From assembly GCA_040751795.1 (NCBI GenBank), contig JBFMHR010000005.1, positions 212,141 through 276,140 of the forward strand: a DNA stretch of 64,000 nucleotides, given 5' to 3'. Shown here one piece after another: positions 11,803-19,575 of the stretch. The DNA is from Thermoplasmatota archaeon. Its GTDB lineage: Archaea; Thermoplasmatota; Thermoplasmata; UBA10834. The notes under the pieces were generated by a model. It was given only the letters and a program-made list of their open reading frames with translations. It ran no database searches and was not told where the DNA came from. The position numbers were made by a program, and so were the translations under genes. Numbering within the stretch: the first letter of the stretch is position 1; the number at the start of each line of letters is the position of its first letter.

Positions 11803-11992
11803 GTGTGCTCAGACCTCGGCCTGCTGAAACGTGTAGGCCCATATATCTGTTTGCGGTGGTGCGCCAGTATGCGCGCTGCCCCGCGCCCCGCCGGCGCGCC
11901 CGGCCAGGCCAGTCGCATGTTGTGGGAACCTATATAAACGGCTATTCCAATAGTTGCCGACACTTGTATTACCCCCGGAGAGGTGGCTCAGT

Positions 11993-12802
11993 TTGGCTAA
12001 CGAGGTCGAGAAGGTCGCTTGCCCTGTCTGTGGCAAGATCGTCGGAGTGAACGTCTCATCGTGCCCGTACTGCGGCGCCGAGTTCGAAGCGGACGAGGAG
12101 GTGGAGGTGACGGGCAAGGCCGGATCGCCCGCCAACGCCGTCACCAGCGAGGAGGCCGAGGAGGTGGCCTGCCCGGTGTGCGGCACGCTCGTCGGGCTCG
12201 ACGTCATCGTCTGCCCCAAGTGCGGCGCCGAGTTCGAGGCGGAGGAGATCGAGGAGGTCATAGAGGTCGAGGAGAAGGCCACCTTCGAGGAGGAGCCCGA
12301 GCCCGCCCCGGCGAAGCCGAAGCGCGCGGAGTCTTCCAAGCCGAAGCCGAAGGCCAAGCCGGCCAGGGAGGAGCCCTCGGAGGGGTCGCCCGCCAGCATC
12401 CTGGACCTCAGGGTGCTCGGCCTCGCGCTCATCATGCTCGGAGTCGTCGGGACGCAGATCGCGCTCTTCGCGGACTGGTACTGGGAGTGGGTCCCGGCCA
12501 TCGAGGACAACATGGTCCTCTTCGTCGTCATCCCCGTCGTGATCCTCGTCGTTGGGCTGGCCGTGTTCATGGTGATGAAGAAGGCCGCGTCGGGAGGCAG
12601 GGACGTCTCGGGGATGGCCCCGGGGGCAGCCCTGGCCCTGTTCATGTTCGGCATCATCGCGCTGATCATAGTCGTCCTCTGGGACCCGGTCAACGCGGCG
12701 CTGAAGGACTCGCCCGCGACGGTCGCGGGCGGCTTCGCGGTCGCGCTCGTGCTCGGGATCGTGTTCATGGTCCTGGGGGCGAGGCGCGCGGCGTCCGCCT
12801 GA
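11993..12802 (+). CDS. Double zinc-ribbon protein with acidic linker and four C-terminal TM helices
   Basis: CPVCG..CPYCGAEFE and CPVCG..CPKCGAEFE; TTG start after GGAGAGGTGG; TATATAAA at about 11931. Confidence 0.8.
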   Translation: MANEVEKVACPVCGKIVGVNVSSCPYCGAEFEADEEVEVTGKAGSPANAVTSEEAEEVACPVCGTLVGLDVIVCPKCGAEFEAEEIEEVIEVEEKATFEEEPEPAPAKPKRAESSKPKPKAKPAREEPSEGSPASILDLRVLGLALIMLGVVGTQIALFADWYWEWVPAIEDNMVLFVVIPVVILVVGLAVFMVMKKAASGGRDVSGMAPGAALALFMFGIIALIIVVLWDPVNAALKDSPATVAGGFAVALVLGIVFMVLGARRAASA

Positions 12803-13234: not shown

Positions 13235-13768
13235 ATGGAGAAGAAGATACTCACGATAATGGTGGCGCTGATAGTTGTCGCCGCCATCGTGGTCGCGTTC
13301 GTCATGATCGCGGCCGGAGGCATGAAGACGGCCGGGGGCTTCACGAGCCTCTTCAACGAGCTCGAGAACCCTAACCCCAGCGTGACCTATGGCGAGTACC
13401 TGGAGTTCCCCGACGACTGGGAGGCGCTAGACATCGTCACCGTCAGCGACACCATAGTCGACATGGACCCGAGGGGCGAGGAGCTCATCGGGGGCGTGAC
13501 CGTCTACACGGTCAGGCTGTACTTCGTCTACATCGACGACAAGTGGTCGGACCCCGACGAGGGCTCGCTGTTCTACGTGCCCACCACGGAGCACAGCAGC
13601 GGCTACTTCACGGTGAACCACGGGCTGTTCTGGCTGGACGTGTCGTCCCCCGAGAACATCGCGGCGCAGTACGACATAGGCGACGTCATAGAGCTCAAGA
13701 CGGCCCTGGATGCCAACGAGGACAACAGCAACACCCTGTCCTTCAGCAGTTGGCTCCTCGCGGACTAG
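13235..13768 (+). CDS. Hypothetical membrane-anchored acidic surface protein
   Basis: MEKK followed by a hydrophobic anchor and an acidic beta-rich ectodomain; typical codon usage. Confidence 0.8.
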   Translation: MEKKILTIMVALIVVAAIVVAFVMIAAGGMKTAGGFTSLFNELENPNPSVTYGEYLEFPDDWEALDIVTVSDTIVDMDPRGEELIGGVTVYTVRLYFVYIDDKWSDPDEGSLFYVPTTEHSSGYFTVNHGLFWLDVSSPENIAAQYDIGDVIELKTALDANEDNSNTLSFSSWLLAD

Positions 13769-13894
13769 GCGGCCGGACGTGCCCCGCCCCCCCCTTCAAA
13801 CCTCTTCCCCCTGTTCTCACCGCACCGACGGCCGCGAGGCCGGCCGTATTTCAAGCTACTGACCCCCCTCCCCGGAGGCCGAGGCCAGCAGGCG

Positions 13895-13909
13895 AAAGGG
13901 TATTATAAG
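13895..13909 (+). promoter_or_regulatory. BRE-TATA promoter of the 14074-18691 unit
   Basis: AAAGGGTATTATAAG. Confidence 0.6.
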
Positions 13910-14073
13910 CAGCTAAGCACTCTTCACCTCCGAGAGCAACCGCTAAGATGCCATGGGCTTAGCGTCGCTATATCGGGCTGACTGAACGAGAGTGCTTTTG
14001 GGGGAGTGAGGGAGTAGCGGCCCGCATGTAGGCACGCCTATCCCCCTCGTGCATCCGGTAAGGAGCAGGAGCG

Positions 14074-16722
14074 ATGGGCTCAAGCCGCCGCCAGGGCAAG
14101 GCGCAACCCCCCGCGCCCCCAGGTTCAAGGGGACTCACCAATGGCAATGCTCTTGCCGGCCCGCCGCGCGTGAGGGTCAAGGCCGTCCCGAACGGCCGCG
14201 TGAACGGCCTCACGAACGGGCGGAAGGACGGGATCACGAACGGCACCAGGCCCGCCGTCGCCAATGGCGCGCAGCGCCCGCGCAGCAGCGGGAGGACCAA
14301 CGGGCTCGTCAACGGCCTCGCCCGGGGCCTCACCAACGGCCGCACGAACGGCCTGACGAACGGGGTCCCCCAGGGGCAGAGCGCCCCGGGCCGCTCCCCC
14401 AGGCGCAGCGGCCGCATCAACGGCCTGGTCAACGGCCTCACCAACGGACTGACGAACGGCCTCACGAACGGGTTGACCAACGGCCTCACCAACGGGATGA
14501 CCAACGGCCGCGTCAACGGCAAGGGGGCCGTGAACGGCTTCAGGTTGTCCACGAGGTCCAGGCGGGTAGCCGACCGCCCCACGGGGGTCCGGAGGAAGAT
14601 GCTCCTCTTCGCCGCCGTGGTCGCCATCATCCTCTTCATACCCTACGCGCTGGTCCACACCTTCCCCCCCGACGAGGTCGAGGTCGACGGGTATTTCATG
14701 GACTGGACGGAGGCGACGGTCTACGAGGACACCCCGGACTCGGAGAACCCCGACGTGTCGCTCACGGCGTACGCCATGAAGGCGAGCCCGCGCGCGTCCT
14801 ACTTCTACATGGCCACCGAGGGCTCCATGATGAACGGCGCAGACGGGGGCGCCGACGGCTTCTACATATTCGTCGACCGCGACGGGGACACCGGCACTGG
14901 CTACCTGGTGAGGGGCCTCGGCGCGGACCACATGATCGCCGTCATCGGCTGGAACGGCTCAGCCGAGCTGGCGGCAAGCTACGTCTTCACCCAGACCGCG
15001 GAGCAGGACGACTACGGAGGGTTCAGGCAGTCATCGGACCCCATGGTTGCGTTCCGGGACGGAGAGATGGAGATCGGCACGGGCCTCATAACCGGCCCGG
15101 CCACCGAGGTCGCCATCGTCGCCCGCCACACGGACGTACCCGATGACTGGTCAGAGGTGAACTTTGCGTGCTCCGGCCCCGCGGTCCGGGTTTCTCAACA
15201 CTATGAGGCCCCCGAGGTGACGGCCGGGCTCACGGACGAGCTCATGCTGAGCATCGACTTCTCGGCCAAGGGCTCCGCCGTTGACCTCGAGGGCCTCAAC
15301 CTAAACCTCTTGGGGACCGCCACGGCCACGGACGTGAAGGCCGTGCGCGGTTCAGAGCTCCTCGGGACCAGCCACGACGGGATGGTGAACTTCTTCCGCC
15401 CCGTCCGGCTGGTCCCGGGCGCGCTCGTCAGGGTCTCCGTGCTCGCGTCCTTCGAAGAGGGCACGGAGGGGCGGTCGTTCGGGCTGAGCCTCGACGAGGA
15501 CGGCGGCCCGGTGTTCGCTGAGAACACCACCTTCTCCCTGACCTCCTACCAGGAGGGGGCCAGGATGACGTACGTCTCCGGCCGGCCAGCCGCCATAGCG
15601 ATCGACGGCGCGTTCGCGGACTGGGACTACACGGTCCCGGTCGAGGACGGGCTGGGCGACGTCGTCCTCGCCGGCACCGGCGTGGTCGACAACGCCGACG
15701 TGGACATCACGGAGGTGGCGTCATGGGCCGCCGAGTCCAGCGCCTATTTCTACATGTCCGTCGACGGGCGGATGCTCGGCGGAACGAACCTCCCCGGTTC
15801 GCTGGCCAGGTGGGCGGACGCCCCGGAGCCGGGCGGATCGATGCCCAACGCGACCGAGGAGGAGCACATGTTCGGCGCGGACTTCGCATACGTGTTCGTC
15901 GACCTGGACGACGACGAGGCCACAGGGTTCTGGATCGGGGGCGCGGAATCCGCGGTCATGGTCGCGGGCAAGGACGGCCGCCTGCTCCTCGCCAACGCCT
16001 ACCGCTACACCGACGGCTCGTGGTCCTTGGCCGGGCCGGTCGAGGCCGCCACCGACCGGGCCAGGATCGAGGTCCGCTCCTCGTTCGAGGACCTCGGGAT
16101 GGGTTCGGACAGGGCGTACAACGTGACGTTCGTGGCCCAGGACTGGCGCGGCTCGGAGGACGGCGTCGTCGCATCCCTCCCGGCGGGCGTGCTGTCGGGG
16201 TCGAGGACGTTCGGGGGGATCATCCTGAACGAGCTATACTCGACCAACCCCACGAAAGCGCTCGACTGGTTCGAGCTGTACAACACCTCCACCGTGTCGA
16301 TCGACATATCCGGCTGGACGCTGTACGTCGACGGCGTCTTGAAGTTCACCATCCCGGACGGCACCATCCTGGACTCCGGGGATTTCTATCTCTCACCGTT
16401 CCTCAGCTTCCTGAGGGGGACCTCCTACGTCATCTACGACGACTCCGACCCCCCGGTCCTGATAGACTCGGTGACCGTGCCCACATGGACCGTCAAGTCG
16501 TACGGCCGCATCGGGACGCCGGACGACGGCTACGGCACATGGGCGTGGATGACGCCCACTCCGGGGGAGATCAACATCGGCCAGACGCCGATCCCGGAGT
16601 TCGGGGACATACTAGTCCCGCTAGCGATAGTACCATTAGTCCTCTTCGCCATTAGGCGTACCCGAGGCGTACGCGGGAAGGAGCGAGGGGATTCAGAAGG
16701 GAAGTCCGATGGAAGTACCTGA
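14074..16722 (+). CDS. Surface protein: N-terminal xxNG repeats, TM, two CBM9/DOMON-like domains, lamin-tail domain, PEF-CTERM anchor
   Basis: LTNG repeats; RRK followed by a TM; duplicated VDGYFMDW..YFY..FVDRDGDTGTG and IDGAFADW..YFY..FVDLDDDEATG; IILNELY..DWFELYN..IDISGWTL..TPGEIN; IPEFGDILVPLAIVPLVLFAIRR. Confidence 0.85.
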   Translation: MGSSRRQGKAQPPAPPGSRGLTNGNALAGPPRVRVKAVPNGRVNGLTNGRKDGITNGTRPAVANGAQRPRSSGRTNGLVNGLARGLTNGRTNGLTNGVPQGQSAPGRSPRRSGRINGLVNGLTNGLTNGLTNGLTNGLTNGMTNGRVNGKGAVNGFRLSTRSRRVADRPTGVRRKMLLFAAVVAIILFIPYALVHTFPPDEVEVDGYFMDWTEATVYEDTPDSENPDVSLTAYAMKASPRASYFYMATEGSMMNGADGGADGFYIFVDRDGDTGTGYLVRGLGADHMIAVIGWNGSAELAASYVFTQTAEQDDYGGFRQSSDPMVAFRDGEMEIGTGLITGPATEVAIVARHTDVPDDWSEVNFACSGPAVRVSQHYEAPEVTAGLTDELMLSIDFSAKGSAVDLEGLNLNLLGTATATDVKAVRGSELLGTSHDGMVNFFRPVRLVPGALVRVSVLASFEEGTEGRSFGLSLDEDGGPVFAENTTFSLTSYQEGARMTYVSGRPAAIAIDGAFADWDYTVPVEDGLGDVVLAGTGVVDNADVDITEVASWAAESSAYFYMSVDGRMLGGTNLPGSLARWADAPEPGGSMPNATEEEHMFGADFAYVFVDLDDDEATGFWIGGAESAVMVAGKDGRLLLANAYRYTDGSWSLAGPVEAATDRARIEVRSSFEDLGMGSDRAYNVTFVAQDWRGSEDGVVASLPAGVLSGSRTFGGIILNELYSTNPTKALDWFELYNTSTVSIDISGWTLYVDGVLKFTIPDGTILDSGDFYLSPFLSFLRGTSYVIYDDSDPPVLIDSVTVPTWTVKSYGRIGTPDDGYGTWAWMTPTPGEINIGQTPIPEFGDILVPLAIVPLVLFAIRRTRGVRGKERGDSEGKSDGST
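14131..14538 (+). repeat. Coding tetrapeptide repeat (L/R/M/I)-(T/V)-N-G, about 21 NG units, with a tandem 12-bp array at about 14413-14520
   Basis: ctcaccaacgga ctgacgaacggc ctcacgaacggg ttgaccaacggc ctcaccaacggg atgaccaacggc; synonymous positions differ between units. Confidence 0.9.
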
Positions 16723-18691
16723 TGCACCCAAAGGCGACTCTGAGAGGATGACGGAGAGCCTGTCGCTCACCGAGCTGCTCCGGCCCATCGGCTCGCTGGG
16801 GGAGGCCTCGAGGCCGTTCGTGCCCGTGCTGGGCGGGCCGAGGCTGTACCTGCTCCTCCTGTACGCGGCCGTGGTCATCGGCGCCTCGGTCGAGTTCTTC
16901 ATGAGCCAGGAGCTCTGGTACGGGAGCTGGGAGGTCTACAACACATACGTCTTCGTGGTCTCCGGCTTCTTCGTCGCCATGGGAATAGCCATGCTGTTCC
17001 TGACCGCCGGGAAGGCCCCGGACGACGGGTTCAAGCTCCCGCTCTCGAAGGAGACCATGTGGGTCACGGGCCTCTTCACCCTCGTCACGACCGGCGTGGG
17101 CCTGGTCGCGCTCGGCGCCGACATAGGCGCATGGGCCGTGCTGCTCAGCGTCCTCATGGTCTCGGGCTTCGTCCTGATGGTGATGGGCATGAGGTCCATC
17201 TCAAACAGGGACAGCTTCTGGCTGGCCGTGTTCGGCTTCGGGGTGATACTGATGGTGCTGATGCCCGTCCACGAGGCGTTCGACCTCGCCAGGAGCGAGG
17301 AGGGGGAGTACCCGTTCACCGGCCTGAACCTCTTCCTGATGGCCGCGGGCATGTCCACCTCGCTCCTCTCGCTGCAGTTCATGAAGACGAGGGACGGCTT
17401 CCTGGGGGCGTGGCTGATAGGCGCCATGGCCCTGTTCCTGCTGGCGTTCCACGAGCAGACCGGGATCGTGTCGACGGGCACATACGAGCCCTACGACCGG
17501 AGCCTGGCCCTGATAGGGGTCGTCTTCTCGTTCCTGCCCCTGTTCATGTACCTCTGGAAGGAGAGGGAGTACTACTCGATGTGGTCGAAGCTGCGGAGGG
17601 CCGTGCACCTGATGCGCACCGGCGACTTCCCCGGCGCCCTGGTCCAGGCCGACGCCGCGGTACAGGAGAGCTCCGAGGCCGGCGTCTCGCACAAGTTCGC
17701 CGTCCCCTGGACCGTCAAGGGGGACGTCCTCTACCACATGAAGGAGTTCTCGAAGGCGAAGACCGCCTACGACCTCGCCCTCGAGATAGACCCCGACGAC
17801 AGCACGACCTGGTGCCACCTGGCGAACATGTACGCCTTCGAGGGCAAGAGGGCCCTGGCCCTCGGCGCCTACGACAGGGCCATCCAGGCCGACCAGAGGA
17901 ACTCGACCGCGTGGAACAACAAGGGCGCGGTCTTCAGCACACTGGACTGGCCCGAGGAGGCCCTCGCGTGCTTCAGCAGGGCCGTCGCCCTCGACCCGAG
18001 GAACTTCGACGCCTACATGAACCTGGCCAGGACCTACGTCAAGCTCGGCAGGAGCGACGACGCGGTGATGAACTACCAGAAGGCCATAGAGATCAGGCCC
18101 AGGAGCAGGCTCGCGAGGGACGGCCTCCAGAGGGAGTTCTACAAGGGCATGTGCCTGGACCAGATCCGCGGCTGGGAGGAGATGGGCCTCGATACCGCCC
18201 CGCTCAGGGCGCTCCTCGAGGAGGACCCCGCCAACTTCGAGCAGCGGTCCAAGCAGTTCCTCTCGGACATCATGGAGCAGAAGGCCCAGCTGGTCATCGG
18301 GGGCGGCGCGGACAAGTTCGACGTGAACGCCGCGATCAAGGCCGTGCTCACCGTGACCGCGGACAAGGGCGCCACCCTGGAGCGGATGATGAAGGAGACC
18401 AACCTCACGAGCGACCAGCTCGTCCTGCCGATCGCCCTCCTGATGAAGACGGAGAAGCTGCACTTCAAGAGGTCCGGGGCGCACGAGGTCTACGTGTCGA
18501 AGGGCAAGGCCCCCGACGCGCCGCCCCAGCCCCCGCCCGAGGAGGAGCCGCCCAAGAGGGTGTTCCCCCTCAGGAAGGAGAGGCCGCAGGAAGAGGAGGA
18601 CGAGGAGCAGGTCGAGCCGACCGCCTCGGTCCTCGTGTTCGGCGGCAGGAAGAAGCCCAAGAAGAAGCGGCAGACGGGGCCCGGGTCCTAG
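16709..18691 (+). CDS. Polytopic membrane protein (about 8 TM) with TPR repeats and a probable C-terminal winged-helix
   Basis: TPRs WTVKGDVLY..AYDLALEIDP, AWNNKGAVF..FSRAVALDP, AYMNLARTY..YQKAIEIRP; GATLERMMKETNLTSDQLVLPIALLMKTEKLHF HTH-like segment; alternative start 16748. Confidence 0.85.
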   Translation: MEVPDAPKGDSERMTESLSLTELLRPIGSLGEASRPFVPVLGGPRLYLLLLYAAVVIGASVEFFMSQELWYGSWEVYNTYVFVVSGFFVAMGIAMLFLTAGKAPDDGFKLPLSKETMWVTGLFTLVTTGVGLVALGADIGAWAVLLSVLMVSGFVLMVMGMRSISNRDSFWLAVFGFGVILMVLMPVHEAFDLARSEEGEYPFTGLNLFLMAAGMSTSLLSLQFMKTRDGFLGAWLIGAMALFLLAFHEQTGIVSTGTYEPYDRSLALIGVVFSFLPLFMYLWKEREYYSMWSKLRRAVHLMRTGDFPGALVQADAAVQESSEAGVSHKFAVPWTVKGDVLYHMKEFSKAKTAYDLALEIDPDDSTTWCHLANMYAFEGKRALALGAYDRAIQADQRNSTAWNNKGAVFSTLDWPEEALACFSRAVALDPRNFDAYMNLARTYVKLGRSDDAVMNYQKAIEIRPRSRLARDGLQREFYKGMCLDQIRGWEEMGLDTAPLRALLEEDPANFEQRSKQFLSDIMEQKAQLVIGGGADKFDVNAAIKAVLTVTADKGATLERMMKETNLTSDQLVLPIALLMKTEKLHFKRSGAHEVYVSKGKAPDAPPQPPPEEEPPKRVFPLRKERPQEEEDEEQVEPTASVLVFGGRKKPKKKRQTGPGS

Positions 18692-19575
18692 ATCTGGACC
18701 TTCCCCTTCTTCAGCAGCGTCTGCAGCGCCTCGTCCGCGGCCCTGTCCTTCTTGTCCCTGTCGTCCAGGGCCTTCCGGGTGGCGAGGTTGACGTCCCTTA
18801 TGGCGTTCCTCTCCTCCCGGACCTCGGCGCGCTTCTGGTCCTTGATCTCTATGACCTTCCCGCGGAGCTCCATCGCCTTCTGGTGGACGGCGTCGGCCTC
18901 CTCCCTCAGCTTGATGAACTCCTCGTGCTTCTTGTTGGCCGCCCCGGAGAGGGCCGCGATCTCCTTCGCGTGGGTCTGGGCCTCCTCGTGGAACCTGTGC
19001 TGCTCCTCCGAGAGGCGCACGACCTCCGAGTGCTCCTTGTCCGCGAACTTGAAGAGGGCGTCTATGCTCGCGTCGACGTCCTTGACCTCCTTCTGGATCT
19101 TCTCCTGCTCCGCGAGGATCTTCTTCAGCCTCTCGACGTCGGCGGCGCGGGCCTTGATCTTCTCGAGGAGGTCCCTCTCCTCCGCGAGCTTGAGCGGGAC
19201 GGTCTGCTGCCTCAGCTCCAGGGCCTTGATGTCCGCCTCGGCGACCCTGACCTCGGTCCTGAGGTCGCCCATGGGCTTCCCCCTGAGCTTCCTCTTGAAC
19301 TCGATGAGCTCCTTGGCCTTGGCCTGGAGCTCGTCCCTCTTCTTCTTGTGGGCCCGCATCTCCGCGACCGCTGCGTCCCTCTTGTCCCGGGCCGCGTTCA
19401 TCGGCCCCTGCAGCTCCTTCCTCTTGTCGTGTAGCGAGTCCCTCTCGGACCTGGCGATCGCCGCGAGCTCGTTTATCTCGTCGCGCTTGTTCAGGAACGC
19501 CCTGAACTTCAGCTCCGCGCTGTCGAGCTCGCTGATCTTCTTCTTCTTCGATGGAGACTCTCTCTTGGTCTTCAT
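18688..19575 (-). CDS. Conserved archaeal long coiled-coil protein (COG1340-like)
   Basis: Continuous heptads with RDEIN/RDSLH/RDEL and ADKEH/ANKKH/ADAVH repeats; ends LLKKGKVQI. Confidence 0.8.
   Translation of the reverse strand: MKTKRESPSKKKKISELDSAELKFRAFLNKRDEINELAAIARSERDSLHDKRKELQGPMNAARDKRDAAVAEMRAHKKKRDELQAKAKELIEFKRKLRGKPMGDLRTEVRVAEADIKALELRQQTVPLKLAEERDLLEKIKARAADVERLKKILAEQEKIQKEVKDVDASIDALFKFADKEHSEVVRLSEEQHRFHEEAQTHAKEIAALSGAANKKHEEFIKLREEADAVHQKAMELRGKVIEIKDQKRAEVREERNAIRDVNLATRKALDDRDKKDRAADEALQTLLKKGKVQI

Follow-up and report, generated by a model that had tools for sequence, protein, structure and literature searches.

The PEF-CTERM/archaeosortase C sorting system, one of Haft's exosortase/archaeosortase systems, and the membrane-anchored winged helices of the ToxR/ToxS and CadC type are the closest described systems to a pair of adjacent genes from an uncultured Thermoplasmata archaeon. 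How the archaeal cell surface is coupled to the cytoplasm is poorly known, and this Thermoplasmata lineage is known from metagenomes only. The pair lies in a 64,000-nt stretch of DNA (the window; C45:212141-276140, contig JBFMHR010000005.1) of a 2.05-Mb genome which is 93% complete, and was compared with relatives that are uncultured Thermoplasmata metagenome-assembled genomes. Gene 1 encodes a surface protein, and gene 2 encodes a membrane protein with tetratricopeptide repeats (TPRs) and a domain of winged-helix (wH) topology. The two genes are strictly linked and sometimes fused, and we are led to suspect that their products are two halves of one membrane unit, a split receptor or anchor specific to an uncultured order of Thermoplasmata; we put the chances of this at about even.

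A passage of PMC5244752 names PEF-CTERM as what archaeosortase C recognises. The gene 1 protein has all three parts of such a signal (a P-E-F motif, a hydrophobic helix and a basic cluster), the single archaeosortase of the genome is closest to ArtC, and paralogues of gene 1 pass or nearly pass the PEF-CTERM model. Gene 1 differs from PEF-CTERM proteins in that it misses the model, has a longer cytoplasmic tail behind the helix, and keeps an N-terminal anchor with a long cytoplasmic tail of its own rather than a cleaved signal peptide. To our knowledge, no sorting system includes a partner that joins transmembrane (TM) helices to TPRs and a winged helix.

In ToxR-type proteins, an OmpR-type winged helix-turn-helix (wHTH) at the N-terminus is joined to a single TM helix and a periplasmic domain. 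The pair is like them in idea, with an outside-facing protein coupled to a membrane-anchored cytoplasmic winged helix, but the winged helix of gene 2 follows eight TM helices and TPRs and has no sequence relation to the DNA-binding wHTH families. The TPR domains of Hop/Sti1, MamA and PilF/PilW belong to soluble proteins or lipoproteins, whereas those of gene 2 are fused to an 8-TM domain. CBM9 of T. maritima xylanase 10A and DOMON of the ethylbenzene dehydrogenase gamma subunit are the folds to which parts of gene 1 compare, but none of its 18 orthologues has a CBM9 or DOMON Pfam match at E <= 0.05. The locus is built from parts of known kinds, namely TPRs, a winged helix, a PEF-CTERM-type anchor and domains of CBM9/DOMON and lamin-tail fold. 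Three features appear to be undescribed: the gene 2 8-TM domain, the (xxNG)n module ahead of a membrane anchor, and the pairing of the two genes. Databases name the homologues 'hypothetical' or 'tetratricopeptide repeat protein', apart from one homologue of gene 1 (P0159) that is labelled 'archaellum component FlaF (FlaF/FlaG flagellin family)' at JGI.

The original prediction, made from the letters of the window, had gone further. It proposed that the TPRs could bind the multivalent [L/R]TNG repeats of gene 1 and that an extracellular cue could be passed in this way to a membrane-tethered, DNA-binding winged helix, which would be a ToxR-like logic split over two proteins. Evidence on this proposal is given below as it arises.

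Linkage of the two genes

The genes are laid out as follows.

14074..16722, forward strand: gene 1 coding sequence, an open reading frame (ORF) of 882 aa, surface protein
16709..18691, forward strand: gene 2 coding sequence, an ORF of 660 aa, membrane TPR/winged-helix protein

Both ORFs stand at these coordinates as predicted and share 14 nt (16709-16722), with overlapping stop and start codons; the overlap ranges from 10 to 14 nt within the genus. A profile of gene 2 found 29 Thermoplasmata loci, 26 of which have gene 1 directly 5' of gene 2 on the same strand. Gene 2 begins at a contig end in the other three, hence all 26 testable loci have the two genes side by side. Synteny with the window extends to the wider neighbourhood in family f1, and in family f2 (L027, L028) the pair are the only genes in common with the window neighbourhood. 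Full-length gene 2 orthologues are present in both families. Of the 301 genomes of the class, 36 encode the gene 2 TM domain (32 of 39 in f1, 2 of 3 in f2, plus one other family), nearly all of them in this order, and gene 1 orthologues were found in 38 of 41 relatives' genomes (E <= 1e-5, paralogues counted in).

P0176, of 1559 aa, is a single fused ORF that runs from the NG tail through the ectodomain, the lamin-tail domain (LTD) and the IPEF-helix-basic end and, after a linker of ~45 aa, into the whole of gene 2. Two proteins (1559 and 1562 aa) make up its cluster, on three contigs of which one measures 1.86 Mb, and the fusion places the last helix of gene 1 next to the first helix of gene 2. 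The pairing of the genes is strict across two families with differing flanks. Synteny in relatives, which had been proposed as a check on the pair, is present at every testable locus, with fusion in one lineage.

These counts bear on the possibility that the genes are merely neighbours in a surface-protein operon and that the TPR/wH protein has unrelated partners. Membrane and surface genes do abound in the vicinity (an FtsX-like permease, DUF1616, a zinc-ribbon membrane protein), and TPR proteins are many in these genomes, at 15-30 matches per genome. Mere neighbours would not be expected to stay adjacent where the flanks differ, to overlap at their stop and start codons, or to be fused on three contigs, and we consider this explanation improbable.

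The surface protein

The features of gene 1 are these.

14074..14589, forward strand: basic tail, aa 1-172, predicted to be disordered, which carries 21 xxNG motifs (NG counts, charge, codon-position test, AlphaFold2)
14581..14661, forward strand: N-terminal TM helix, aa 170-196, a predicted signal-anchor with the N-terminus inside (AlphaFold2 helix, hydropathy)
14686..15153, forward strand: ectodomain D1, aa ~205-360, homologous to D2
15169..15582, forward strand: middle beta-sandwich domain, aa 366-503
15583..16191, forward strand: ectodomain D2, aa 504-706, CBM9/DOMON-type fold
16204..16563, forward strand: LTD, aa ~711-830
16591..16677, forward strand: PEF-CTERM-like end, with IPEF, a TM helix at aa 848-865 and RRTR (conserved motif, model helix)

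Of the NG dipeptides, 21 fall in residues 1-155 and 2 in the 698 residues that remain, and the tail has a net charge of +25. AlphaFold2 gives residues 1-171 no secondary structure, at a predicted local distance difference test score (pLDDT) of ~25, and places a helix at aa 170-196; RRK precedes this helix and an acidic stretch follows it in the sequence. The basic tail with its ~21 xxNG motifs and the TM helix behind it had both been described in the original prediction. Eighteen sequences were compared (the window and 17 orthologues; L026 was excluded, its N-terminal part being out of frame), and their tails measure 90-191 aa, with 8-29 NG and net charges of +7 to +27. The commonest NG spacing is 4 (177 times), followed by 8 (21 times) and 6 (17 times), and the consensus unit is [L/R]-T-N-G.

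The tail is translated: its comparison with close orthologues has the same excess of third-codon-position changes as the ectodomain. Changes against L013 at codon positions 1/2/3 number 30/26/60 in the tail and 82/64/137 in the ectodomain, and synonymous to non-synonymous changes are 41:41 and 90:121, so that the tail's share of synonymous changes equals or exceeds that of the ectodomain. Of all dipeptides, Asn-Gly deamidates most readily, and for this reason NG tails could age quickly.

The AlphaFold2 model of gene 1, built on the 18-sequence alignment (mean pLDDT 66.4), has four beta-rich domains between its N-terminal and C-terminal helices, and their folds were placed by VIA-align against 48,161 PDB representatives. 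As modelled, the ectodomain is made of two CBM9/DOMON-fold domains, a sialidase-type sandwich and an LTD, which are carbohydrate-binding-type beta-sandwiches. D1 and D2 are homologous (BLASTP E 1e-12, 31% identity), and structure comparison assigns the CBM9/DOMON fold, in agreement with the two duplicated CBM9/DOMON-like domains first noticed. The predicted LTD was likewise borne out: it has an Ig-like fold, scores 35.7 bits against the PF00932 gathering cut-off of 34.3 in the window, and is matched in 18 of 18 orthologues, where it is the sole domain that Pfam recognises. A Foldseek search with full-length gene 1 returned generic multi-sandwich adhesins and integrins only, at TM-scores < 0.25.

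The C-terminal end was predicted to be a PEF-CTERM anchor. The parts of the signal are there, with I840, P841, E842 and F843 invariant in the 18-sequence alignment (A2) and the IPEF-helix-RRTR end conserved in the aligned orthologues, but the window copy does not match the family model, TIGR03024. That model has a cut-off of 23 bits; the f2 orthologue L027 falls short of it at 21 bits, and a paralogue at C45:30529 exceeds it at 24.3-25.6 bits. The genome has a single archaeosortase, an Exosortase_EpsH protein whose best model is ArtC and which passes the generic exo/archaeosortase signature (52.5 bits against 23). The C-terminal anchor of gene 1 is probably a substrate of this ArtC-like enzyme.

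The membrane protein

The features of gene 2 are these.

16838..17563, forward strand: 8-TM domain, aa 44-285 (AlphaFold2 helices, invariant columns, K+R bias)
17627..18181, forward strand: predicted cytoplasmic TPR domain, aa 307-491, five repeats and a capping helix
18323..18502, forward strand: winged-helix-topology domain, aa 539-598 (AlphaFold2/DSSP)
18614..18688, forward strand: EPTASVLVFG motif, then a polybasic end (conserved in aligned orthologues)

The AlphaFold2 model, from 16 sequences (mean pLDDT 76.6, predicted TM-score 0.62), has eight TM helices between residues 44 and 303 and five TPRs, in line with the ~8 TMs and several TPRs of the original prediction. Invariant residues of the TM domain are P186, A190, F247-H248-E249, G252 and Y262-D263, with H188-E189 near-invariant, and the conserved motifs PVHEAF, FHEQxG and YD fall in predicted outer loops. 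No Pfam family matches the TM domain, an Atlas search of named clusters gave no usable match, and a word-based homologue search returned only orthologues named 'tetratricopeptide repeat protein'. Its profile has 37 matches among 1.84 billion representatives, and in all 21 of these relatives that were scanned with Pfam the domain is followed by TPRs. Further cytoplasmic domains among the 21 are zinc ribbons in four and DUF835 (iKaiC) in two; the latter two end in DUF835 in place of the winged helix. DUF835 appears in a listing in PMC5847659 as the iKaiC output domain of archaeal response regulators.

Distant relatives in other Thermoplasmata families (L074, L076, L077 and L078; 630-1120 aa) begin with as many as ~ten zinc ribbons and have acidic linkers, a membrane domain akin to helices 4-8 of gene 2, and C-terminal TPRs with no winged helix. 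An argument on topology from the parity of their TM helices was set aside, as crude hydropathy gave 4, 4, 5 and 4 segments and six were counted by eye in two of them.

Ten TPR helices occupy residues 307-462, followed by the capping helix and then two further helices. The domain matches Pfam TPR models and has the alpha-solenoid fold; its net charge among orthologues is +4 to -5, mostly -1 to -2. TPR matches filled the fold search with full-length gene 2, which barely probed the TM and wH parts.

The C-terminal domain had been proposed as an HTH-like, DNA-binding part; the model gives it winged-helix topology, and sequence comparison found no relation to DNA-binding families. DSSP reads the model as H539-549, a bridge at 555-556, H557-564, H568-580, E584-589 and E592-598, the H-b-H-H-b-b order of a winged helix, at a pLDDT of ~80-87. 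The domain has no Pfam match at E <= 10 and no hits in a PDB profile search, hhalign gives it 0.3% probability against the TrmB wHTH domains of the same genome, and its Atlas scores of 0.79-0.81 are below 0.9 and serve as leads only. The equivalent region of a paralogue has a weak TrmB match (E 1.7e-4) that is below the cut-off. Helix 3, the putative recognition helix, is conserved as a hydrophobic LVLPxALL with no conserved basic residues, which we take as a hint against DNA binding, and the net charge of the domain among orthologues is -1 to +6. A DNA-binding output of gene 2 is possible but unsupported by these comparisons.

EPTASVLVFG is conserved in 15 of 16 aligned orthologues, being absent from L027, and is found in no other protein of the genome. 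AlphaFold2 predicts this end of gene 2 to be disordered, and in one genus two zinc ribbons are inserted before the motif. A soluble paralogue of ~291 aa (G000 C23:144156-145121) is 29% identical over 119 aa to the C-terminal region of gene 2 and has the same W-x-x-LGLD helix, then two winged-helix-like units, which suggests that the C-terminal module also exists as a free protein.

Predicted topology

Charge bias (the +25 of the tail), the zinc ribbons of the paralogues and the fusion all place the NG tail in the cytoplasm. The loops of gene 2 carry, as an average over 16 orthologues, 11.6 K+R on the N-terminal side and 1.2 on the opposite side, and the fused ORF is topologically coherent only if the N-terminus of gene 2 is cytoplasmic. 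An N-terminus inside the cell followed by eight helices puts the TPR/wH region inside as well, and the zinc ribbons inserted in the C-terminal tail of gene 2 in one genus point to the same side. The NG tail and the TPR/wH region are thus both predicted to be cytoplasmic, as the original prediction had expected from the positive-inside rule.

The xxNG module across the class

Five proteins of this genome have an NG-rich tract before a TM helix. In the four paralogues of gene 1 among them, CPxCG zinc ribbons are followed by xNGxGx hexapeptide repeats and a cluster of Arg residues, then by the TM helix, a large ectodomain and, last, IPEF with a helix and basic residues. All 4 paralogue tails contain CxxC motifs, which are missing from all 18 tails of gene 1 orthologues. 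A DNA pattern for five NG with a period of 4 is present in 88 of the 301 genomes of the class, and its reversed control in none. All nine NG-bearing ORFs that were examined in three other genomes have the NG run 30-110 aa before the TM helix of a large protein, and eight of the nine have zinc-ribbon motifs upstream of the run.

The xxNG repeat is therefore a general cytoplasmic module before a membrane anchor and not a private ligand of gene 2. The repeats do not need the gene 2 TPR protein, because they occur in 88 genomes and the gene 2 TM domain in 36. Full-text literature searches on the repeat strings, and on Thermoplasmata surface proteins with zinc ribbons and cytoplasmic tails, found nothing relevant in a coverage that leaves out most subscription journals.

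The zinc-ribbon/NG/Arg/TM/ectodomain architecture recurs at G000 C45:30472-34485, C45:170521-173601, C1:110289-113771 and C1:458469-461861 and at loci L079-L087, with a very large ectodomain and often a PEF-CTERM end. Small zinc-ribbon genes adjoin two gene 1 paralogues (L069:1525-2226, L072:2646-3344). A TPR protein of ~710 aa, ~7 kb from a gene 1 paralogue, was considered as a partner and rejected: in this genome it is soluble and all-TPR, and it adjoins SepF at a distance of five genes, the intervening ones including RtcB, an HD protein and KaiC.

A proposed split membrane unit and its alternatives

In the reading that we favour, the products of gene 1 and gene 2 are two halves of a single membrane unit. 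Gene 1 would be a surface protein held at both ends, by its N-terminal signal-anchor and its C-terminal PEF-CTERM-like anchor. Gene 2 would be an 8-TM protein with both termini in the cytoplasm, where it would present a peptide-binding-type TPR domain, a winged helix and the C-terminal strand motif. The two proteins would be made together, given the overlapping stop and start codons, and would then associate in the membrane. Contact may be through membrane helices, juxtamembrane tails, or the TPRs with the NG tail; contact between membrane helices is possible because the fusion sets the last helix of gene 1 beside the first of gene 2. Gene 2 may supply in trans the cytoplasmic adaptor that the paralogues seem to carry in cis as zinc ribbons, and the unit may connect an ectodomain that binds glycans or surfaces with protein-protein interactions in the cytoplasm, for positioning, assembly or signalling.

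Several findings weigh against this picture. No comparable partner gene, and no TM-TPR neighbour, accompanies the four paralogues in this genome, and a partner is for this reason not a general need of the protein family. Some database gene calls for gene 1 orthologues begin inside or after the NG tract. The sorting signal is irregular as well: the last 70 aa of the window protein and of L013 have no TIGR03024 match at E <= 10, the end after the basic cluster is unusually long at ~15 aa, and the archaeosortase reaches 80.1 bits where the ArtC cut-off is 100. Finally, the roles given to the TM and wH domains of gene 2 are guesses, since neither matches a described family.

The locus offers a strictly linked, sometimes fused pair in which a surface protein of glycan-binding type is matched with a TPR/winged-helix protein of the membrane, and it reveals the (xxNG)n module ahead of the membrane anchor in many large surface proteins of the class. 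If the two proteins form a complex, the pair would be a tractable entry to an archaeal transmembrane adaptor unlike bacterial two-component or ToxR-type systems.

TPR proteins serve as assembly chaperones for pili and secretion systems, and gene 2 might instead be a dedicated biogenesis or sorting factor for gene 1, whose membrane domain would hold or even process the divergent PEF-CTERM helix while the TPRs would act as an assembly chaperone. This would fit the position of the PEF-CTERM helix directly before the first helix of gene 2 in the fused ORF, the invariant or near-invariant residues in the predicted outer loops, and the atypical sorting signal of gene 1. The membrane domain itself does not look like an enzyme of either expected kind, exosortase/archaeosortase or CPBP peptidase, by profile or by catalytic residues. 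Besides matching no Pfam family, it has 0.1% probability by hhalign against an alignment of four CPBP/Rce1-like proteins, three of them from relatives and the fourth from this genome, and residues 1-300 of gene 2 have no cysteine, hence no archaeosortase-type catalytic Cys. The TPRs are also on the cytoplasmic side, away from the ectodomain, and the genome has a separate archaeosortase. A biogenesis role is still a serious alternative, though one that we find unlikely.

A broader form of the two-part unit would make the [L/R]TNG-type module a general link between large extracellular domains and their effectors, zinc ribbons in cis or the TM-TPR-wH protein in trans, with the present pair as the split form in which the TPRs read the repeats. 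We are doubtful of this too, though if true it would be a novel kind of archaeal architecture that carries information or force through the membrane.

The signalling scheme of the original prediction, in which the TPRs read the repeats and the winged helix binds DNA, comes out as the least probable: it gains from the shared cytoplasmic side, a disordered tail of the usual kind for TPR ligands, the winged-helix topology and the signalling-type output domains of TM-TPR relatives, but it is opposed by repeats that are far more widespread in the class than gene 2 (which is almost confined to this order), that precede a TM helix in all nine ORFs examined in three other genomes and do so in four paralogues lacking a gene 2 partner, and that vary in number from 8 to 29, by a TPR domain only mildly acidic beside so basic a tail, and by the hydrophobic helix 3, near-neutral to basic charge and failed profile comparisons of the winged helix.

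Putative promoter region, leader and neighbouring genes

Two features precede the pair.

13891..13908, forward strand: BRE/TATA-like element GGCGAAAGGGTATTATAA (B recognition element and TATA box), read from the sequence, ~166 nt 5' of the gene 1 ATG
13935..14073, forward strand: conserved leader, ~140 nt, lying after the TATA-like box and before the ATG (blocks of conservation in alignment A7)

The single BRE-TATA that had been predicted before the pair, GGCGAAAGGGTATTATAA, is near-invariant in 6 of 6 aligned same-genus upstream regions, with a single G/A change in one locus, and would be the promoter of gene 1. An AAGGAG Shine-Dalgarno-like site lies 11 nt 5' of the ATG. Leader blocks such as GAGAGTGCTTTTGGGGGAG and TAGCGGCCCGCATGT are conserved across six same-genus genomes, and RNAalifold predicts 32 pairs in the leader, 8 of them with compensatory changes, among six close relatives. 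An Rfam scan of the window, leader included, matched no family. The region may act as a structured leader with a regulatory role, or it may be a separately promoted small RNA.

The 177-aa protein directly 5' of gene 1 (13235-13768, forward strand) has an N-terminal TM helix and neither a Pfam nor an NCBIfam match; it is kept at that position in 15 f1 loci and was not found in two f2 loci. Two genes 5' of gene 1 is a 282-aa protein (11954-12802, forward strand) with two zinc ribbons (Zn_ribbon_3, DUF7575) followed by TM segments, which is conserved in 13 loci. On the other side, a 295-aa coiled-coil protein (18688-19575, reverse strand) matches DUF7121 at E 3.2e-11; it is convergent with gene 2, with abutting stop regions, and adjoins gene 2 in 12 f1 loci.

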